This document shows positions 6,401 to 46,279 of a stretch of DNA of 64,000 bases, piece by piece. Below the pieces are notes generated by a model. That model searched no databases. It was not told where the DNA came from and saw only the letters and a list, made by a program, of their open reading frames with translations. The stretch is from a phage. The stretch lies in the sequence record PV636258.1; one strand, written 5' to 3'. Position numbers and translations under genes: made by a program. Numbering within the stretch: the stretch's first letter is position 1; each line of letters starts with the position of its first letter.

Positions 6401-7195
6401 TTAGCAGAAACTCTTGTATGCTGCCGCCAGTTTAGTATCATACTGGTTTTTCGCATATGCCGGACCATTGTACCGACGAGCAAACTCGGCCCAATTCTTG
6501 TTCTTCAGGGCTTTCCACATATTGGCATCTGCCTTGATGAACTTGACAAATGCCAGAAGGTGAGCGCGTTCACCAGTCAGGAAATCAGTGAACATCTCTT
6601 TGGCATTTGAATAGCCACAGATTTGGCAGTTGAACCCCATGATCTGGAATAGGCCGTAGGAAGCACTCTCGTAAGCGCAGTCCTCGTCAAGGGCGATTGC
6701 ACCCTGAAGGCGTTCCAACTCCGCGTCTCCGCCGATATACCCGCCAGAATTGGGGTTAACCAATGTTGGATAGAGTTGGTACAGAGCATTGGCTCTTGCT
6801 TGCCCGAATTTGGCCGTCACCTTTTTGTACATGATGTGGCGCTCAAACAGAGTTTTGATCTTGCCAGTTTTGGTAAAACCCGTGCCACGGGATTCTACCT
6901 GATTCACAGCTTTCATACTGGCCAGCTCAACACCAAGTTCACGTGCTGCGTCAACCAAGTCCGCTTCGGTCAGATGTTCCTGGTGAGCGTCTCCAGCGTT
7001 TCGGATAGCATAGAAGGTCTTTGGCCCAGCAATACCATCAATAACCAATCCAGCACCTGCCTGAACGGATTTGACAGCATTCTCTGTTGCCTTACCAAAT
7101 ATGCCATCGGCTGTAAGAGAGAAACCGATTTTGTTGAGGCTTTGTTGAAGTGCTTTGACTTCAGAACCTCGGTTGCCAAGTTTTAGAATGGCCAT
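6401..7195 (-). CDS. endolysin: N-terminal peptidoglycan-binding domain plus C-terminal muramidase-like (DUF3380-type) domain
   Basis: N-terminus LKLGNRGSEVKALQQSLNKIGF...DGIFGKATENAV matches PG_binding_1; C-terminal domain resembles phage N-acetylmuramidase family; GGAGGT SD before ATG 7195. Confidence 0.8.
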   Translation of the reverse strand: MAILKLGNRGSEVKALQQSLNKIGFSLTADGIFGKATENAVKSVQAGAGLVIDGIAGPKTFYAIRNAGDAHQEHLTEADLVDAARELGVELASMKAVNQVESRGTGFTKTGKIKTLFERHIMYKKVTAKFGQARANALYQLYPTLVNPNSGGYIGGDAELERLQGAIALDEDCAYESASYGLFQIMGFNCQICGYSNAKEMFTDFLTGERAHLLAFVKFIKADANMWKALKNKNWAEFARRYNGPAYAKNQYDTKLAAAYKSFC

Positions 7196-19805: not shown

Positions 19806-20921
19806 TTATGCATCCAATGTGTTCAGGCGTTGTTGGGCAGCATTATAAAATTGTTCTGCAAGTTTGCAAACATTTTCAGGGCGCTGGATATTGTTGGCTG
19901 CGCGGATATCATTTTTCAAGACTTCCACCGCATCAGTAGCCACCATCTCTTCAGTGACTTCTACCTTCTCGGAAGCAACAGTAATCGTCCGATCGATGAA
20001 GTTGTAATCGATGCATTTACAGCGCTTCAATGCGTCACAGAACTTTTCATAATGCTTGGCATTGTCACGGTTCTGTACAATCACCTTAACGATTTGCCCT
20101 TCAATACCCAAAACATTGTTTAACCAATCGGGGTCGATCCAATTACCTTCAGTATCAGAAGACATTTGTGTGTAGTCGTATTCCACGAACCGGAACAACG
20201 TTTGTTGTTCGTTGTTGGGGATAAACAATTCCCCGCCATTCATGTCGTCTACATAGAATCCTCGGTTCGTCCCGTCTTTGTGGTCTTCCCAGGTAAGGTG
20301 ATAAGGAGTCCCAATATACTGAATGTTACCTTCCATCGAACGGGTATGGAAATGTCCGGTATCCACGCGCTCGAATTTCGAAAGGAGCGCCAAGTCGATC
20401 TGACCTTTATCACATACAGAGGACTGGTACATTTTGAACCCTGCCAACTCCAGATGCGCAAAACAGTACTTGGCGTCTGTATCTTGTATCGCTTTAATGG
20501 ACGCATCATAGTTCTCTTTGTTAATCCACGGCAGTAGGAGGGTCTTGACACCTTCAATCATTACTTCAGTTGGTTCACTGTAATAATGATAAACATCTGG
20601 TGCCAATTCATTAAGATAAGAAGGCCAGTTAATGCGATTGGACTCTTCTAACGTGATATCATGGTTGCCGACGATGCCATTCCATTTAATACCTGCTTTG
20701 CGCAGCGCTGGCGTCAATTCATCTTTCAACCAATCTTTATCGCGACCATACATGAATTTGCGAACATCAAACGTATCACCAAATTGCCACACTTCTTTAA
20801 TATCGGCGTCAACCAATTCTGGAATAAAATAATTGATGAGATAATTCTTTATGAATTCTCGAACGTAACGGGAACCATTACGGCTCCCGATATGTAAATC
20901 ACCAATTTTAGCAATCGCCAT
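19806..20921 (-). CDS. 47: recombination endonuclease subunit, Mre11/SbcD-like (T4 gp47-like)
   Basis: calcineurin-like phosphoesterase motifs (GDLH, GDTFD, GNHD, GHFH) colinear with T4 gp47. Confidence 0.9.
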   Translation of the reverse strand: MAIAKIGDLHIGSRNGSRYVREFIKNYLINYFIPELVDADIKEVWQFGDTFDVRKFMYGRDKDWLKDELTPALRKAGIKWNGIVGNHDITLEESNRINWPSYLNELAPDVYHYYSEPTEVMIEGVKTLLLPWINKENYDASIKAIQDTDAKYCFAHLELAGFKMYQSSVCDKGQIDLALLSKFERVDTGHFHTRSMEGNIQYIGTPYHLTWEDHKDGTNRGFYVDDMNGGELFIPNNEQQTLFRFVEYDYTQMSSDTEGNWIDPDWLNNVLGIEGQIVKVIVQNRDNAKHYEKFCDALKRCKCIDYNFIDRTITVASEKVEVTEEMVATDAVEVLKNDIRAANNIQRPENVCKLAEQFYNAAQQRLNTLDA

Positions 20922-21699
20922 TATTTTGTTGCTCCCGTTCTAATGCTCGTTTCTTTGCTTCTTCCCAATCTGGTTCCATAGAACATATTTCGTCTTCCAG
21001 ATTGAATTGAGTAGAGCCGAAGTCATAGTCTGAATTATCTTCGGCGTCGGCGGTAATGGTATTTTCACTCTTTGTGAGACATTGAAGTATACCGCGTGGA
21101 ATTTTCTTATTCTTTTCCTCTTCTTTGATGGCGATTTGCTTTTGGCGTTCCTTTTCGCGCTGGGCTTCTTTCTTAGTTTCAAAATTTCCGATACGCTCAC
21201 GAAAGTCCATTGTTATACCAGTGCTGTCTACGAACGTCTGTTGCTGGAAGTCTGGGTCATCTGATAATGCAGCGAAACCACCTGCTTCTTCAAATGAACG
21301 CAACTTGATATAATTGTGTTCTTCTTCACTGGTGAGTTTCTTGGCGAATGAACGGTCGGCGCACATCGTTACCCAAGAGAAGAAATTGATTTTTCCTTTC
21401 TTGCCGATATGACTGACGTCAAATGTATGGAGGTAACGAAGAATGTTAACAACGGCCTCACTGACCATGTCTTCGCGGTATGGATAATCACGATAGTTGT
21501 AGCGCATACTCATGTTCTTAATAATCATCTGAACATTCATGGCCACATAATTGGGGATTCTTGGTAGGGGTGTTCCTTCGGCCAAAGCCTTTTTGCGAGC
21601 CGGAATCCAATCTCTCAATATTCCAACAACACGGTCATTATCTTCGTCTGTGAAATATTTGGTGACGTTATCACCCCTGTCTACAAAATTCATACCCAT
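20908..21699 (-). CDS. 55: late-transcription sigma factor gp55-like, with C-terminal acidic extension
   Basis: central region resembles T4 gp55 (LHTFD...FFSWVTMCADRSF); start set at ATG 21699 with GAGGA SD (track start is TTG). Confidence 0.65.
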   Translation of the reverse strand: MGMNFVDRGDNVTKYFTDEDNDRVVGILRDWIPARKKALAEGTPLPRIPNYVAMNVQMIIKNMSMRYNYRDYPYREDMVSEAVVNILRYLHTFDVSHIGKKGKINFFSWVTMCADRSFAKKLTSEEEHNYIKLRSFEEAGGFAALSDDPDFQQQTFVDSTGITMDFRERIGNFETKKEAQREKERQKQIAIKEEEKNKKIPRGILQCLTKSENTITADAEDNSDYDFGSTQFNLEDEICSMEPDWEEAKKRALEREQQNNGDC

Positions 21700-21710
21700 C
21701 GTGATAATCC

Positions 21711-22238
21711 TCAAATACCAATGAATTCATTGAAAGAACCAACGACTTTCTTGACCGAGAAACGGTTATTTTCAAGAACCATTGAACTATCTTCTTTGGC
21801 TCTAACGCTCCACTGATCCGCAATTTCGTTGCCCATCGTTCCTGCATGACCTTTCACCCATTTTAATTCAAGTTCACAAATTGAACAAACTTTGTCATAA
21901 TAATCGAACAACTCGAGCAGAAGTTCTGTGTTCTTAGGCGGCATTCCTTCATATTCCCATTTACGACGCCACTCCAAAACGCTATTGATAACATATTGGC
22001 TGTCGGATATGATGCGGGCTGGGGGAATGCAGCGTTTACCGCAATTAGAGAATTTCCATAGGATCTTCATTGCGTTTATAACCCCGAGTAACTCAGCTAT
22101 ATTGTTCGTTGACGGCGGGGGTAAATACCCATAAAACACTTTCCATTGCTCTCCAGTGATTGGACTGATGGCAAATGCCCAACCAGCGGCTCGTGTCTTC
22201 TGAGGGGACGATGCCCCGTCAGTGTATATTTCAATCAT
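21711..22238 (-). CDS. ribonuclease HI (RnhA-type)
   Basis: IEIYTDGAS, NNIAEL, DSQYV, W.KGHAGTMGNEIAD catalytic motifs; ATG 22238 chosen over TTG 22253. Confidence 0.85.
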   Translation of the reverse strand: MIEIYTDGASSPQKTRAAGWAFAISPITGEQWKVFYGYLPPPSTNNIAELLGVINAMKILWKFSNCGKRCIPPARIISDSQYVINSVLEWRRKWEYEGMPPKNTELLLELFDYYDKVCSICELELKWVKGHAGTMGNEIADQWSVRAKEDSSMVLENNRFSVKKVVGSFNEFIGI

Positions 22239-22280
22239 GTATAAGTATCCCAAACTGGTTTTATCGATGAGGAACGAATC

Positions 22281-23048
22281 ATGTCAGAACGCGCATATCG
22301 TTTCAGTCTGACCGCCCCAGAAATTGAGCGTTTGCTCTTGTCTATAAATGATTCCATACAAAAGCTGGACATCATTTATGACTACACGGCGGGTGGGACT
22401 GAAGGTCAAGTCGCAGCTGCGTCAGCTGTCAAAAACATGTGGCTAAAACTTAATGAGATGGTCACAGGTGAAGGTCTTAAAGACGCAATCAATGCAGCTA
22501 ACGACAGCAACGTATTCACCGATTATTATAAGTCTATTTTAGATCGCGAAACCTGGAAATTTATTGGTTCTCCGGCAGATTTATTAGCAAGGGACGATAT
22601 AGACACTTCCAATTTTGAAGGCGGTGAAGTAATCCTCCTACAAAAGAACGCTTCGGGCAACCCAGAATTCCAATACTGGAAAAGAACTCCTGTGGCAGGA
22701 GGTGATCCAATATTTGGTTGGGGATCTGTTTATGAAGGAAACTCCAACGACTCTTCTATTGATATTCCGGTTGTTGGGACCAGCATACTGAAGACCATCC
22801 CAAAAGCATTGTTTCATATGGTCGAATTCCGAGTACATGCTCGAGAGTCTACCCTCGGTCATTGGCAGGACACTGATGGCAAAATCGGTTATCGTGGTGA
22901 AGATCTGATTTATAGCCTGTATAATCATGTTCAAACCAAACCGATCGCAAATATATCTTTCAGCCAAGATGTGGACAATATGATTATCACGATAACGACA
23001 CTTGAACCAAATATCAAGTGCCATTTATCGTTTATTGCGGGTTATTAA
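22281..23048 (+). CDS. hypothetical protein (255 aa) on opposite strand
   Basis: ATG 22281 with GAGGA SD 8 nt upstream; fills a gap with no convincing minus-strand gene; convergent overlap with helicase stop. Confidence 0.5.
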   Translation: MSERAYRFSLTAPEIERLLLSINDSIQKLDIIYDYTAGGTEGQVAAASAVKNMWLKLNEMVTGEGLKDAINAANDSNVFTDYYKSILDRETWKFIGSPADLLARDDIDTSNFEGGEVILLQKNASGNPEFQYWKRTPVAGGDPIFGWGSVYEGNSNDSSIDIPVVGTSILKTIPKALFHMVEFRVHARESTLGHWQDTDGKIGYRGEDLIYSLYNHVQTKPIANISFSQDVDNMIITITTLEPNIKCHLSFIAGY

Positions 23049-24766
23049 ACCTCAAACACTGCATCGGTGAACCAGGTTGGGAAGAATTCTGGGTTGCGCA
23101 TCATAAGAGATTCAAAGGATGAATCAATGATGTATGTCGCAGCCCAGTCATCAACACCCCTGACCGAACGCCCACACATTTGAACAATGCGCAGTACTGC
23201 ATTGCGGAAATATGCCGACGGATCCACTGAATTGATATGTGCTATCAGTGGATCGCCCAGATAATCATAAGGGACTTTGATCAGTATTTGGAAACGGCTG
23301 TAATCCCCTTTGAAATCATAACCTTCTTCCATAGCCGGACTGGCAATGACGCATGGGGACTTTGTTCTAAAAGCATTTTCCATAATATCCATCAACGCCT
23401 TTCGGGTGCGCGGAACATGGATAAAATTCTGATATTTACTGAATTTTTGTATTGCCAAGGCGCGATCATAACTCACTGTATGGATAATGCCGGACTGACC
23501 TGGGTGGAACGCGATTATTTCATCAATATATTCCGTCAACCTTTTCATTTCATAGTCGCCCATATTGTTAGTCATCTTCACTATGGGCATATAGTTGACT
23601 TTTCTGTTTTCAATTGGGATAGGGTTGCCGATCTGAATGGAATGATAATCCCCCTGTCGAATACCCAATGAACGAGCATAAGAATCTATGCCGCAGATCG
23701 TTGCTGACATATGAACGTGATAATCGGCTTTTCGGAATAACCCGAATTCACTTACATCAGAAGGCATAACAGGTTTAAACCGAATAAAATCTTCCCCCTT
23801 TTCTTGCACAATAAATGTACTTGCTTGGGTTTGTGACATAATACCGCAATAATCACTCAAGTTGTGCAAGACATCTATAATGTCTGCGAGTTTCATCACT
23901 TGGCTTTCACTCAAGCGATCATCTTCGACCAATTCTTCAAGGACTTCCAACAAATTTTCTACTTTGAGATGGAGGTCTTCAAACATTGAATGTAGTTCAC
24001 CAGACAAAGAATATAACTTGCCCAGGACATAGTCCTTGGTACGTTCTACGATATCACCAATGGTAGAGACGATCTCCTTGCCCTCAGGGATAGAACGCAG
24101 CCCCTCCACGGCCTTTGTATTGTATTCCATGATCGTGTGCTCTAGGAGCGTAGAGGGCATTTTATGGCACTCGTCAAGAATCAGCATATCGGAACGGTTT
24201 TCGGGCTTCATGCAGATGGTTGTACACATTTCGATCATCATGGCAGCATTAGTACAACGCAATGATGAAATATCCGTCCACAAATTACGCGCCTGTACAT
24301 AAGGACAGCGGCGTTTGCTACAATGCCCGTCACGGCATGCTATACGGCATTGGACAGCATTGTAATACACATCTGGATGTACGTGGCAACGATAATTCTT
24401 CTTGCCTTTTAGGATATCGATTGATACTGCTTTTTCAGCAGCATACTGATCTTGCAGACCTTTGGTCGGGGTGCTGATAGAAGTGCGAAATTGCCCATAA
24501 GGATCAGCCTGTAAAACTAGATGGCGAATCACTTTATGAATGGTAGTTCCAATCAAAGATTTACCGACGCCTGTCGGAGCTTCAATGATGACATGTTTAA
24601 CCTTTTTGTTGATAAGCGCATCTATGGCTTCGATGATGCATTCCATCTGGCCTGGGTTCGCTTTGTCATATGGGAATTCATCTTTGGCAAGGCGTTGTAT
24701 TTCTTCCATAGGAACCTTACGGCCTATGGCGTCAATCGCCTTTCGGTGTTGATTAAATGCTGTCAC
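23045..24766 (-). CDS. DinG/XPD (Rad3)-family Fe-S helicase-like protein
   Basis: Walker A APTGVGKS, DECH box, four-Cys cluster region CHVHPD...CRIACRDGHC...CPY between them; GTG start 24766 with AAGGAGG SD. Confidence 0.75.
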   Translation of the reverse strand: MTAFNQHRKAIDAIGRKVPMEEIQRLAKDEFPYDKANPGQMECIIEAIDALINKKVKHVIIEAPTGVGKSLIGTTIHKVIRHLVLQADPYGQFRTSISTPTKGLQDQYAAEKAVSIDILKGKKNYRCHVHPDVYYNAVQCRIACRDGHCSKRRCPYVQARNLWTDISSLRCTNAAMMIEMCTTICMKPENRSDMLILDECHKMPSTLLEHTIMEYNTKAVEGLRSIPEGKEIVSTIGDIVERTKDYVLGKLYSLSGELHSMFEDLHLKVENLLEVLEELVEDDRLSESQVMKLADIIDVLHNLSDYCGIMSQTQASTFIVQEKGEDFIRFKPVMPSDVSEFGLFRKADYHVHMSATICGIDSYARSLGIRQGDYHSIQIGNPIPIENRKVNYMPIVKMTNNMGDYEMKRLTEYIDEIIAFHPGQSGIIHTVSYDRALAIQKFSKYQNFIHVPRTRKALMDIMENAFRTKSPCVIASPAMEEGYDFKGDYSRFQILIKVPYDYLGDPLIAHINSVDPSAYFRNAVLRIVQMCGRSVRGVDDWAATYIIDSSFESLMMRNPEFFPTWFTDAVFEV

Positions 24767-24815
24767 GTTGTTCCTCCTTTGGATTCTGTTATAGTTTACC
24801 CGAATCCCAACAACG

Positions 24816-24850
24816 AAAAAGCCGAGGCATTAACCTCGGCTTTCTCTTTT
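24816..24850 (-). terminator. bidirectional rho-independent terminator
   Basis: hairpin gccgagg/cctcggc flanked by A-run and T-run. Confidence 0.6.
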
Positions 24851-24901
24851 AGCCTTGCGCCGCTGCACTGCAGACATGCGCTGGGCCGACGCCTGGTGTG
24901 A

Positions 24902-25180
24902 TTACTGGCCGTTGGCAGCAGCTTTCAGACCTTCACCGACTTTGAATTTAACTACATTTTTCGCTTCGATCTGGATCTGTTGTCCGTTCAGCGGGTTGCG
25001 GCCAGTGCGCGCTTCCTGATGTTTAACTTCGAACGCGCCGAAGCCTACGAATTGGACAGATTGGCCAGCCGCGACTGCAGTTTTCACGCCATTGATAAAA
25101 GATGCAACGATTTTCTCAGCTTCGCCTTTGGTCATACCCTGAGTCTGGGCGATGTGAGCGATAAAATCAGTACGGTTCAT
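24902..25180 (-). CDS. HU/IHF-family DNA-binding protein
   Basis: MNRTDFIAHIA...GFGAFEV...RNPLNGQ typical of HU; ATG 25180 with GGAGT SD. Confidence 0.85.
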   Translation of the reverse strand: MNRTDFIAHIAQTQGMTKGEAEKIVASFINGVKTAVAAGQSVQFVGFGAFEVKHQEARTGRNPLNGQQIQIEAKNVVKFKVGEGLKAAANGQ

Positions 25181-25263
25181 TCGGATTACTCCAGTTGGTT
25201 GTTTACGATGTTTCACTACAAGAGGACTACAGCTTACCTAACAAATATTATTGAATAAAGCGT

Positions 25264-26055
25264 TTATTTGCCGACGTTCAGAATTTTACCTGAGCCGGAT
25301 CCGTCAACGATCAGAGTACATTTCCCGCTGTTGGCGCAAGATTGCAACACCATGTTATATTCGTGTTGTAAATATTCAGATGTCAGAGATGTCGTCAGTT
25401 TCTGATTCGCCTTGGCTTCTTGGTCGCGAATTTCAACGTTCTTTCTTGCTGTATCCAAACGTTTGTCAGCCATGACATTATCACGGATAGATTGCTCAAT
25501 CGAAGGATCTGTCAGCGCCTTTTTCACCAACACGCGTGTGATTGTGAACATGCCAGGCGCAGCAGTTTCCAATTGCTGCTGGGTGCGTTCCTTGATCATC
25601 TTTTCTAACTCAGCCCGTTGGGTGTGAATTGTCATAGAATCCAAAGAAGAAACGGCGTCCATCGTTGAGGATGCTGCGGCGGTTTTAACCAGGTTGAATC
25701 CCACCGCTATCGTGCCGTCACCGAGTTCAGCGCTCTGACCTGCAAATTTGGTATGGAACCAAGGAACCTTCGCGACGTTCGGTGTGTAATAAACGTCCAC
25801 ATCCAGATCTTCCAAGGTCAGGTTGTCTTTGGCCTTTGGCGTCATTTTCGTCAGACTCACGACGGCTTCTTTAGTCGTATAGACATCTACACTTGAAACG
25901 AAACTGGTGTAGATACCTGCGGTTACAGGGTTCATGTCCACTTCACCCCATTGGGTTCGAACACCGACGTTTCCTTCATCGATAACACCGCCGCAGCCTG
26001 AAAGAAGGCTTGTTGCTAGGACCATAATTGCGCCAAATACCAGTTTCTTGAACAT
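25264..26055 (-). CDS. SPFH (band-7/stomatin-prohibitin)-domain lipoprotein
   Basis: lipobox LLSGC after hydrophobic leader; SPFH-like core (EGNVGV...TKEAV...KDNLTLEDLDVDVYYT); AAGGAG SD; ATGA-coupled to upstream small membrane ORF. Confidence 0.65.
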   Translation of the reverse strand: MFKKLVFGAIMVLATSLLSGCGGVIDEGNVGVRTQWGEVDMNPVTAGIYTSFVSSVDVYTTKEAVVSLTKMTPKAKDNLTLEDLDVDVYYTPNVAKVPWFHTKFAGQSAELGDGTIAVGFNLVKTAAASSTMDAVSSLDSMTIHTQRAELEKMIKERTQQQLETAAPGMFTITRVLVKKALTDPSIEQSIRDNVMADKRLDTARKNVEIRDQEAKANQKLTTSLTSEYLQHEYNMVLQSCANSGKCTLIVDGSGSGKILNVGK

Positions 26056-26264
26056 CAATGTACTCCTTCAAAAATGTAAATATAAGCACCCAATGTGAGT
26101 GCAGTTATTGTAACCGAAGAAATCAGCAGTAGGAAAGTTACTCTCACCCGTTTGCGCCAACGTTTACTTCGGTAGATTTTAGTCTCTTTCAAGTATTTGA
26201 AAAAGAAAAATAAAATGAATGTTGAAATTACGAATATGAACAGATAACGGATTAACCCGATCAT
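26055..26264 (-). CDS. small two-helix membrane protein (69 aa)
   Basis: two hydrophobic segments separated by a basic loop (RSKRWRKRVR); translationally coupled to SPFH gene. Confidence 0.5.
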   Translation of the reverse strand: MIGLIRYLFIFVISTFILFFFFKYLKETKIYRSKRWRKRVRVTFLLLISSVTITALTLGAYIYIFEGVH

Positions 26265-26581
26265 ATTTCCCACCCTGTGCTACGCAGATGATCAAAATAA
26301 TCGTTGAGTTCGTCAATATCTTCGATATCAACCCAACGATCATCCAGTCCCATATCATTTAGATCTTCTTCAGTCAGATCATGTTGATAAATCTGAATGC
26401 CCGAAGCATTACAATAATCCGGCTTGATATTGTTGTTGAACTGGAACAAATCATAATCAGCCAGAGTATTCTTCAGGCGCTGCGCTTCTTCAAATGTTGG
26501 AACCTCAACATGAAAAGCGATCCCAGGAACCTGGGGAATATGCCAAACACGAAATTTAAGTTCAAATGGTTTATTCGACAT
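26261..26581 (-). CDS. hypothetical acidic protein (106 aa)
   Basis: ATG 26581. Confidence 0.5.
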   Translation of the reverse strand: MSNKPFELKFRVWHIPQVPGIAFHVEVPTFEEAQRLKNTLADYDLFQFNNNIKPDYCNASGIQIYQHDLTEEDLNDMGLDDRWVDIEDIDELNDYFDHLRSTGWEI

Positions 26582-26858
26582 GTTGTTCTTCCTGCGCCAA
26601 TATTACTTTCATTTGCTCACGAGTAATGATGGTTTCAACAAGATTCTCGTCAATCATCATTTCGTTTAACAGTTCACAACCCAGCACGTGTGGTCGCGCC
26701 ATATACGGTATGGCGTTGAGTTTTTCTTCTATGTCAAGAACGCGCTTGACAGTCAGACCCATAGAAGAAAAGGGAACAGGATAAAAGAATGAAATGATCT
26801 GATTATCCATCCCGTTTGAAAATCTTACCAACAATACATCACACCATACGCCGGACAT
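26571..26858 (-). CDS. hypothetical protein (95 aa)
   Basis: ATG 26858 with GGAGGTG SD. Confidence 0.45.
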   Translation of the reverse strand: MSGVWCDVLLVRFSNGMDNQIISFFYPVPFSSMGLTVKRVLDIEEKLNAIPYMARPHVLGCELLNEMMIDENLVETIITREQMKVILAQEEQHVE

Positions 26859-44753: not shown

Positions 44754-46253
44754 TTAGAGCGCCACTTTTTTCATTTTAACAGGGTGGCGCTCCATAAGAT
44801 AAAATTTATATCTCTCATGAGAATGCCTGAGAGCATGGTTGTAGGAACCGTTGTAGCGCAGGTTGTCTACCAGGTCCCAGATTCGCGCAACATCCTTAGA
44901 GGAATGCTGACGCATCAAACGCCCCAATGTCTGTATAACACGGATATAAGATTTGCTGGGATGGGCCAATATCAGATGATGGAGTTTTTTGATAGATACG
45001 CCCTGTTGCATAGTACCATATGATGCTAACAGTGTTATATCTTCCCCTTCTTCCATAGCAGCCTGAATCTGTTTACGAACTTCTGTCTTGACTTCCCCGT
45101 TGATGACGAATACGTTTTTCTTGACTGCCGATAGCATTTCATAAACCAACATCATGTGTGCATCGATACGTTCGAACATTACTGCGACGTTCCCTTTCAA
45201 AGATAGAGCCATTCGGGCTATCAATTCATTGCGGCGTTCGTTAGCAATGAGGAATTCTATTTCCTTTTGATACTCAGCACCGTGCATTTCAATACAGTCT
45301 GCCATAGGATGTATGACTTCAATCATATTAACATTGATGTCCGCCGCATATCCTAGATCGATTAAATCGCGCGCTGTAATAATTTTATGATATGCACCAA
45401 AGTGAGCAACGACTTGTAACCCTGCGACCTTTGTATTCGCCAGGGTTCCGGTTACTCCCAAACGTTGATCAGCGTTAATACAGTTGTTCAAGATGTAAGA
45501 CAATTTATCTGATTTTGATGTATGTACTTCGTCGACGACGATATCTCCAAATTGATGGAACCACTCTTTGGGTTGGTTCTGGATACCTTGCCAAGTTGAA
45601 ATAACTATGGGTTTGAAAATCTCTTTCGTTGCCCCTTCGTATATTGTCTGGACGTTCATCAATGGCTTCCATTCTGTCCCGTGGCTATATTCTTCGAAGT
45701 TGTCATACAACTGAGTCACCAAATGAATGGATGGTACAACGATTAACGTTCTCAGATTACTTTCGAGGGCATCTCTGCGTTGCCTGTAGTAACGAGCCAT
45801 GATGTACAAAATAAAGGATTTGCCGGCACTCGTGGCAGCTTCGAGGACACATCTGCTTTGGCGTATTGCTGTGGAAACAGAATCAAATTGATAATCGCGG
45901 ACAATCGCTTTTTGATATTGTTTGTTTTCGTCTCGGTACACCGCATTCAATGTATCGATGAACGCATGAATTTCTTCATCCGGAATATCTTGAATATATT
46001 TTAAGGCCGGATCTAATTTGATGGTGTAACCGTTCATCTTACAGAATTTGAACACCTCAAATAACAGGCCGATGTCGATAAGCCCAGAACTCTTTGTGAA
46101 CAGCCGCACTACGCCGTCCCATTTACTGAACGGATTCGGTTGGAAATTAGGATCTTCAAATTTGAAGTAATCGTTGAGTTCTTCACGGATATAATCCTCG
46201 GCGAGGATCCGCATTCTAACTTCGTTCACTTTGACTATTTGGATCTCAGACAT
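44754..46253 (-). CDS. uvsW: UvsW-like DNA/RNA helicase
   Basis: colinear with T4 UvsW (TSAGKS, DEVH, SGEV..E.R, LHHLILAH, QTLGR); CTAAATAC box 26 nt upstream of ATG 46253. Confidence 0.9.
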   Translation of the reverse strand: MSEIQIVKVNEVRMRILAEDYIREELNDYFKFEDPNFQPNPFSKWDGVVRLFTKSSGLIDIGLLFEVFKFCKMNGYTIKLDPALKYIQDIPDEEIHAFIDTLNAVYRDENKQYQKAIVRDYQFDSVSTAIRQSRCVLEAATSAGKSFILYIMARYYRQRRDALESNLRTLIVVPSIHLVTQLYDNFEEYSHGTEWKPLMNVQTIYEGATKEIFKPIVISTWQGIQNQPKEWFHQFGDIVVDEVHTSKSDKLSYILNNCINADQRLGVTGTLANTKVAGLQVVAHFGAYHKIITARDLIDLGYAADINVNMIEVIHPMADCIEMHGAEYQKEIEFLIANERRNELIARMALSLKGNVAVMFERIDAHMMLVYEMLSAVKKNVFVINGEVKTEVRKQIQAAMEEGEDITLLASYGTMQQGVSIKKLHHLILAHPSKSYIRVIQTLGRLMRQHSSKDVARIWDLVDNLRYNGSYNHALRHSHERYKFYLMERHPVKMKKVAL

Positions 46254-46279
46254 CACTAATTTCCCCCAATATTATGGAG

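Follow-up and report, generated by a model that had tools for sequence, protein, structure and literature searches.

The best described members of the XPD/DinG (Rad3) family of superfamily 2 (SF2) helicases are cellular proteins. E. coli DinG (PDB 6FWR and 6FWS) and F. magna DinG (9KQH) combine an SF2 motor core and a DExH box with an Arch-type insertion and, between motifs Ia and II, a cluster of cysteines. The gene for DinG is chromosomal and SOS-regulated, and in E. coli the protein has been reported to be required for replication across highly transcribed regions (PMC2770101). XPD/Rad3 proteins (T. acidophilum 4A15, 2VSF and 9P55; S. acidocaldarius 3CRV; human XPD in TFIIH) have a four-domain layout, and CasDinG/Csf4 of type IV-A CRISPR systems (8E2W, 7XF0, 8RFJ) has the same fold with a FeS domain described as vestigial (PMC10450177). 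Among the small DNA-bending proteins of the DNABII (HU/IHF) family, SPO1 TF1 and African swine fever virus (ASFV) pA104R are encoded by viruses; SPO1, like Kuttervirus, builds its DNA from 5-hydroxymethyldeoxyuridine (hmdU). Here we describe a 64,000-nt stretch of phage DNA (sequence record PV636258.1; the whole stretch is referred to as the window) in which two minus-strand genes encode an XPD/DinG-like helicase and an HU-family protein, hereafter HU (Table 1). Both open reading frames were found where a sequence-only reading of the window had placed them (23045-25180).

We propose that the helicase would be an iron-sulfur (Fe-S) accessory helicase, and that HU would be a separate DNA-bending protein acting inside the infected cell. 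We give this combined account a rough probability of 0.55. GenBank already lists the two genes under these family names in well over a hundred records, and each is an ordinary member of its family. The present analysis adds the set of cysteine ligands (C127, C140, C149 and C154, not C144), a confident structural model of each protein, the placement of the gene order and of the terminator, the uncoupling of HU from the helicase, and two helicase-bearing T4-like lineages without Dda.

The window derives from a Kuttervirus (Ackermannviridae), a group with Salmonella and E. coli as hosts, and is collinear with Escherichia phage CBA120 at ∼49.8-110.5 kb. Positions 22000-26200 share 99.9% identity with Salmonella phage Chennai and 98.6% with CBA120, and at least 80% of this region is covered in 170 phage records, nearly all of them Ackermannviridae. 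The CBA120 counterparts are orf124 ('DNA helicase') and orf125 ('DNA binding protein'). Labels in other records are 'ATP-dependent DNA helicase DinG' and 'Rad3-related' for the former, and 'DNA-binding protein HU-beta' and 'transcription factor 1' ('TF1') for the latter.

Family identity of the helicase

The helicase very probably belongs to the XPD/DinG (Rad3) family, as the sequence-only reading had proposed. Pfam Helicase_C_2 (PF13307) matched residues 465-566 with 46.1 bits (gathering score 25.3, E = 7.1e-12), and PHROG 2488 ('DNA helicase') matched end to end (3.7e-265). The Walker A region gave a ResIII match and a sub-threshold DEAD match. From 577 homologues found in a database search, 62 (31-100% identity) were aligned, and statements on invariant helicase residues refer to this set. 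When the alignment profile was compared with PDB sequences, the matches included F. magna DinG (6.5e-21), E. coli DinG (1e-17), Rad3 (2e-13), T. acidophilum XPD (9e-13) and FANCJ (5.5e-12).

The AlphaFold (AF2) model of the helicase (pLDDT 90.9, pTM 0.89) pointed to the same family. Foldseek against the PDB returned E. coli DinG 6fwr at 8.5e-27 (query-normalized TM-score, TMq, 0.66), XPD chains at 4.7e-24 (T. acidophilum) to 1e-17 with TMq up to 0.67 (human XPD), and CasDinG at 5e-21. The best 39 matches were all XPD/DinG/CasDinG-type chains, with RecQ and other SF2 helicases only at ∼1e-9. These are whole-chain alignments spanning 600-700 columns of DinG and XPD, not per-domain superpositions. 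The model predicts two RecA-like motor domains, the first with an Arch-like helical insertion and the four-cysteine insertion. The Arch-like part is modeled as long helices at residues 256-280 and 287-312 and a beta hairpin at 317-332. Pfam HBB gave a weak match to residues 335-396 (E 0.04).

The relationship to the cellular proteins is distant. The helicase is 14-17% identical to DinG and shorter (573 vs. 716-748 aa), and its gene belongs to a lytic phage. Its size is near that of archaeal XPD (551-620 aa), it shares Helicase_C_2 with XPD/Rad3 and seems to share their four-domain layout, but the identity is 11-15%, the cysteine spacing differs, and it is without TFIIH-type partners. DEAD_2 (PF06733), the profile that usually covers the Fe-S/Arch part of the family and that had been suggested as a check, did not match the helicase even at E up to 10, and was found in one of 120 homologues among the matches listed. 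The motifs themselves are present, and the missing match is best read as divergence from the profile. NCBIfam ortholog cut-offs were missed for DinG and YoaA (NF008729 and NF053712; 57.6 vs. 598 and 53.9 vs. 680 bits), rad3 (TIGR00604; 27.1 vs. 247 bits) and Csf4 (TIGR03117; 12.6 vs. 400 bits). Because the scores lie so far under the cut-offs, the helicase is regarded as a separate branch and not as an ortholog of DinG, YoaA or Rad3.

Phage records with a member of the family number 498. They comprise enterobacterial, Vibrio and Aeromonas Ackermannviridae, T4-like phages of Rhizobium/Sinorhizobium, haloarchaeal HF2/HRTV myoviruses and some megaphages. A distant member lies on a 262-kb contig, likewise in a phage-like context. 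We concluded that the helicase represents a divergent, mostly viral branch of the XPD/DinG family.

Motor motifs and invariant cysteines

The SF2 motor motifs Q, I, Ia, II, III, V and VI are complete (Table 1), including the Walker A and DECH boxes recognized in the sequence-only reading. The cysteine of DECH (C200) is present in 57 homologues and replaced by serine in the other five. In motif III (HMSATI) S354 and T356 are invariant, as are S476, G482 and D484 in motif V and Q529, G532, R533 and R536 in motif VI. The catalytic machinery is thus predicted to be intact, and the phage protein to be a catalytically competent SF2 helicase.

Of the 14 cysteines of the helicase, exactly four (C127, C140, C149 and C154) occur in every one of the 62 homologues; C144, kept in 15, is excluded from the invariant set. 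Only 40 of the 573 positions are invariant, and four of these are the cysteines lying inside 28 residues between motifs Ia and II, a clustering well beyond chance. Across the homologues the pattern reads NYxC-x10-12-C-x8-10-C-x4-6-CPY, and the interval between motifs Ia and II is the site of the Fe-S domain in the XPD/DinG family. C149 and C154 align with C199 and C205 of E. coli DinG, and C154 also aligns with Rad3 C191 and with the cysteine of the FANCJ CPY motif. The spacing, on which the earlier Fe-S proposal depended, is compatible with a 4Fe-4S site and unusually compact (28 residues from first to last). Since the four cysteines are invariant and aligned to ligands of DinG, Rad3 and FANCJ, they probably bind a [4Fe-4S] cluster.

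Proposed role of the helicase in replication

The phage is credited with a T4-type replisome (gp41, gp59, gp43, gp45, gp44/62, gp32, UvsX/Y/W and gp46/47). The CBA120 annotation lists gp41, gp59, a primase, a UvsY-like mediator, a RecA/UvsX-type 'DNA repair protein' (orf068) and gp46/47, and a UvsW homologue lies in the window. With T4 Dda as the query nothing was found in the whole CBA120 genome or in the window (best E 0.47), and the CBA120 RefSeq annotation has no 'Dda-like helicase', a product name that is present in the T4 RefSeq record. Sinorhizobium phage phiM9 belongs to another T4-like family and also has gp41, UvsW and a dinG-like helicase; the Dda query found no match there (best E 0.086). 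Only 32 Escherichia phage records matched the helicase by tblastn, approximately the number of Escherichia Kuttervirus records. T4-like coliphages thus do not appear to carry an XPD-like helicase, which is consistent with the earlier remark that this class is not found in T4 itself.

Because gp41 and UvsW homologues are present and Dda is absent, we propose the helicase as an accessory 5'-3' helicase. By analogy with solved XPD and DinG structures, it would move 5' to 3' along single-stranded DNA that passes beneath the Arch and Fe-S domains, the latter serving as the wedge that parts the strands. It would serve in recombination-dependent replication, where it would free forks of R-loops, D-loops and bound proteins lying in front of them or in their wake. 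RNase HI, conserved nearby, would be its natural partner in R-loop removal, and such a partnership is possible. The proposed functional counterpart in T4 is Dda, an SF1B helicase whose superfamily and fold are unrelated and which lacks an Fe-S cluster; the two are paired on presence or absence in three genomes. That the phage helicase fills a Dda-like role is a tentative suggestion, to which we give somewhat less than even odds. If it does, the helicase would be a tidy example of displacement by a non-homologous protein in a replisome that has been studied well, and biochemistry would gain a small and tractable Fe-S helicase.

A broader version of this proposal is doubtful in its entirety. In it, a mostly virus-borne branch with a minimal 28-residue Fe-S module would have assumed the accessory role of Dda in several T4-like lineages (Ackermannviridae, Pootjesviridae) and in haloarchaeal myoviruses, clearing R-loops with RNase HI. 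HU would be a lineage-specific protein tuned to DNA in which ∼40% of thymidines carry the positively charged side chain of 5-(2-aminoethoxy)methyl-2'-deoxyuridine (5-NeOmdU).

The helicase could instead be a dedicated DNA-repair enzyme that protects the hypermodified genome, either by XPD-like opening and verification of damage or by YoaA-like clearing of blocked 3' ends. Its best NCBIfam matches are YoaA (1.3e-14) and DinG (8.3e-16), phiM9 has a UV-repair gene for an endonuclease V (DenV-like) with the helicase homologue four genes upstream of it, and the Kuttervirus gene is near gp46/gp47 (Rad50/Mre11-like). However, the NCBIfam matches are far under the ortholog cut-offs, and neither UvrA/B/C-like nor chi (HolC)-like partners are annotated in CBA120. 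We consider a dedicated repair enzyme unlikely. The idea overlaps with the accessory role proposed above, because repair and recombination-dependent replication are inseparable in T4-type phages.

The HU protein

HU starts with the ATG at 25180, and the MNR/MNK start is common to every homologue. Pfam Bac_DNA_binding (PF00216) matched residues 1-90 over the entire profile (1-90/90; 7.7e-30, 103.4 bits vs. 22.4). The best PDB sequence match was B. anthracis HU (1.3e-19), with other HU/IHF chains also found and TF1 at 3.9e-11. Identity is 40% to E. coli HU-alpha/beta, 41% to Geobacillus HU, 37% to TF1 and 29-30% to IHF; with the bacterial HU structures included (B. anthracis 3RHI, S. aureus 4QJN, Anabaena 1P71) the range for bacterial HU is 40-44%, over the full-length DNABII fold. 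The monomer model (pLDDT 95.2) has helices at residues 3-14, 18-37 and 83-89 and strands within 42-81, and agrees with HU/IHF structures at TM 0.82-0.88 and rmsd 1.6-2.4 Å; ASFV pA104R is a weaker structural match (TM 0.66). The model supports the HU fold anticipated by the sequence-only reading, and the protein is a full-length DNABII member. NCBIfam cut-offs were missed for HU-alpha (67.2 vs. 162 bits), HU-beta (67 vs. 157), IHF-alpha (76.2 vs. 111) and IHF-beta (66.8 vs. 115).

Like bacterial HU, the phage protein has the GFG motif and keeps R58, G60, R61, N62, the intercalating P63, and K86; it differs at position 55, which is Q and not R. R58, G60 and P63 are invariant across 39 relatives. 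The phage proteins form a clade of their own (58-100% identity). Recent capture of HU from the host was rejected, given the 40% identity to E. coli HU and at most 48% to the nearest cellular proteins.

HU would dimerize and bend DNA, with P63 of each beta-arm inserted. Its place would be the infected cell, where this nucleoid-associated protein made by the phage would act on partly hypermodified DNA and aid replication, recombination or transcription without being a virion component. In ViI-like phages including CBA120, 5-NeOmdU replaces ∼40% of T (PMC5889632). Neither HU nor the helicase is among the 61 proteins of the CsCl-purified virion of the close relative Sajous1 (PMC10892097, Table 6). 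A virion role of HU is therefore disfavored, and with it the genome-packaging chromatin function that had been suggested from the sequence. A table of the same paper lists both genes among replication and structural genes, which we read as a list of proteins conserved among Vi01-like phages.

HU might also be a TF1-like specialist that prefers modified phage DNA and regulates transcription, or that is packaged as virion chromatin. Several GenBank records carry the label 'transcription factor 1', the phage DNA is hmdU-derived and contains 5-NeOmdU, and SPO1 TF1 is a precedent of an HU homologue that prefers hydroxymethyluracil (hmU) DNA (Grove et al., 1996, as cited in PMC3969353). In P0137, a relative encoded on a 10-kb contig and 58% identical to HU, arm position 61 is F (RQGFNP), as in SPO1 TF1. 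However, the Kuttervirus clade has R61, and the 37% identity of HU to TF1 is not above that to ordinary HU (40-41%). HU extends two residues beyond the HU core and is without the 9-residue C-terminal extension of TF1. Both F61 and the C-terminal extension are important in TF1. Homologues of HU also occur in many phages not known for hmU (Ralstonia, Burkholderia and SPbeta-like phages), and the packaged variant is at odds with the Sajous1 proteome. A specialist of this kind thus seems improbable compared with the general intracellular DNA-bending protein that we prefer. If HU does act on 5-NeOmdU DNA, it would make a useful comparison with TF1.

A second candidate, CBA120 orf010 (6625-7134, outside the window), is called 'histone family DNA-binding' in RefSeq, a label that looks unsupported, as Pfam gave no match at E up to 0.01. 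A two-HU system involving orf010 was dropped.

Alternatives to the proposed Fe-S helicase

The four cysteines span 28 residues in the phage helicase vs. ∼85 in DinG, and this compactness raises the possibility of a structural zinc site or a vestigial domain, or of an ATPase/translocase that does not unwind DNA. In E. coli DinG, C194-C205 alone sit ∼75 residues past the first ligand, which we take to be C120. The region also escapes recognition by DEAD_2, and the CasDinG FeS domain reported as vestigial (PMC10450177) is a precedent. Unlike CasDinG, however, the phage family keeps all four cysteines down to 31% identity. Two of them align to known DinG ligands, the fourth is part of a CPY motif, like its counterparts in Rad3 and FANCJ, and every ATPase and helicase motif is intact. 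We consider these alternatives quite unlikely, and a cluster-binding helicase remains our preferred assignment.

A defense or counter-defense function akin to type IV CRISPR CasDinG or to Hna/PDC-type helicases is very improbable: it is suggested by a PADLOC match (PDLC01439 'typeIV_DinG, CAS-IV-A associated', 4.4e-50, residues 24-553), a weak PDC-S28 match and the presence of Hna and CasDinG structures among the Foldseek matches, but there are no cas/csf genes or arrays nearby (the neighbors being HU, orf123, RNase HI, gp55 and gp46/47), the Csf4 score is 12.6 bits vs. 400, the helicase is listed with replication and structural genes (PMC10892097), and it is kept in other T4-like and haloarchaeal viruses. 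Membership in a defense system was ruled out by gene context and the Csf4 score. PDLC01439 is probably a generic Rad3/DinG profile. Its match is far better than those of the curated DinG and Csf4 models, and it could yield false 'type IV CRISPR' calls on phages.

Intergenic region and independence of the two genes

On the minus strand the order from 5' to 3' is SPFH lipoprotein gene (26058..25264), HU, intergenic region and helicase. The 135-nt intergenic region contains an imperfect GC-rich hairpin, followed by a 14-bp hairpin and a U-rich run. The terminator hairpin (24846..24815) has a 4-nt loop (UAAU) and a stem in which GC-rich GCCGAGG/CCUCGGC is lengthened by A/U pairs; it is followed by UUUUUCGUUGUU on the minus strand. 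The folding energy of a 116-nt intergenic RNA is -45.3 kcal/mol (z = -2.99), a value that 0 of 200 shuffled sequences reached. The terminator between HU and the helicase is real. The sequence-only reading was right on the terminator and had the direction reversed: since both genes are on the minus strand and HU has the higher coordinates, HU is upstream (5') of the helicase and downstream in plus-strand coordinates only.

The helicase starts with GTG, 6 nt past AAAGGAGG. Between the terminator and this ribosome-binding site, and abutting the Shine-Dalgarno sequence, is an inverted repeat GGATTC-n15-GAATCC (within 24767-24815, minus strand), possibly a translational or transcriptional control element. 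A scan for sigma-70-like promoters in 22000-26600 gave 10 sites vs. 9.7 expected and was uninformative on HU and helicase transcription. The T4 late-promoter motif TATAAATA occurs twice in 64 kb (1.76 expected), with no site near the two genes. Since a gp55-type factor is present while TATAAATA is no more frequent than expected by chance, this phage group must use late promoters unlike those of T4.

Serratia phage phiMAM1 has the full order HU, helicase, reversed orf123, RNase HI, gp55, gp47 and gp46, and Vibrio phage D533 keeps this order intact apart from HU. At >70% identity HU is restricted to enterobacterial Ackermannviridae. A single functional operon of HU and helicase was rejected because of the terminator between them and the helicases without HU in Vibrio, Aeromonas and Sinorhizobium phages. 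We concluded that the two are neighbors that do not form a unit, as phages beyond the enterobacterial group carry the helicase without HU; they are evolutionarily uncoupled and separate, independently expressed genes.

Several results count against the combined account of an Fe-S accessory helicase and a DNA-bending HU. The missing DEAD_2 match and the scores below the DinG, YoaA and Rad3 cut-offs have been given above, and since the ortholog cut-offs are missed, any transfer of function from a single DinG, YoaA or Rad3 is loose. The presence and absence of Dda were compared in three genomes (T4, CBA120 and phiM9). HU homologues were found in fewer than eight Vibrio phage records vs. 77 for the helicase, and HU does not adjoin the helicase in Vibrio D533, Aeromonas phiA8-29 or Sinorhizobium phiM9; because it is missing beside the helicase in these phages, HU is dispensable for the helicase. 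Vibrio phage 1.255.O carries 5-NeOmdU (PMC5889632), so HU is probably not tied to that base. Small basic proteins can escape virion mass spectrometry. In the literature we found no biochemical, genetic or other functional study of either gene, and a 2024 Ackermannviridae review mentions neither a helicase nor a DNA-binding protein.

Neighboring genes

The coordinates of the two genes, their features and the surrounding genes are given in Table 1.

Table 1. Features of the helicase/HU locus and other genes in the window (residue numbers refer to the protein concerned).
Feature	Position	Strand	Basis or remarks
gp55-type late sigma factor	20908..21714	-	
Cellular-type RNase HI	21711..22253	-	PF00075, 5.7e-24
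orf123 homologue, 255 aa	22281..23048	+	PHROG 3833; no Pfam match
Helicase gene, 573 aa, 65 kDa	23045..24766	-	ORF; PHROG 2488; Helicase_C_2; AF2 model; Foldseek
Helicase_C_2 region of second motor domain, with motif V SPAMEEGYD and motif VI QMCGRSVR	23069..23374	-	Pfam PF13307
Arch-like insertion in first motor domain, residues ~210-345	23732..24139	-	Model secondary structure; Foldseek
Motif II/Walker B DECH, residues 198-201	24164..24175	-	D198, E199, H201 invariant
Four-cysteine (putative 4Fe-4S) segment C127-x12-C140-x8-C149-x4-C154, then PY	24305..24388	-	62/62 homologues
Motif Ia TPTKGLQDQ, residues 99-107	24446..24472	-	L104, Q105, Q107 invariant
Motif I/Walker A APTGVGKS, residues 63-70	24557..24580	-	T65, G66, G68, K69 invariant (62 homologues)
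Q-motif region FPYDKANPGQ, residues 31-40	24647..24676	-	F31, Q40 invariant
Ribosome-binding site AAAGGAGG	24767..24785	-	Sequence; CBA120 annotation has same start
Intrinsic-terminator-like hairpin and U-rich run, between HU and helicase	24809..24846	-	RNA fold, sequence
Second, imperfect GC-rich hairpin, directly past HU stop codon	24851..24890	-	Intergenic RNA fold
HU/IHF-family (DNABII) gene, 92 aa, 9.8 kDa, pI 9.8	24902..25180	-	Pfam, PDB sequence matches, model
HU beta-arm tip QEARTGRNP, residues 55-63	24992..25018	-	Alignment
SPFH/Band-7 protein with lipoprotein signal (…LLSGC)	25264..26058	-	Pfam Band_7 1.2e-12; PHROG 200 'lipoprotein'
Homologue of phage P22 gp17 superinfection exclusion protein	26261..26581	-	PF17420, 9.3e-50
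UvsW homologue	44754..46256		UvsW_N domain

The RNase HI gene is two genes downstream of the helicase, past the reversed orf123 and ahead of gp55, gp47 and gp46. The TAA stop codon of the helicase and that of the convergent, plus-strand orf123 homologue share 4 nt. The orf123 homologue interrupts a series of minus-strand genes (no other plus-strand gene occurs at ∼49-94 kb in CBA120), adjoins the helicase as far as Vibrio phage D533 (30% identity), and is labeled a structural or baseplate wedge protein in some records. On the other side, the SPFH/Band-7 lipoprotein gene lies directly upstream of HU. The P22 gp17-type superinfection exclusion homologue is carried here by a virulent myovirus.

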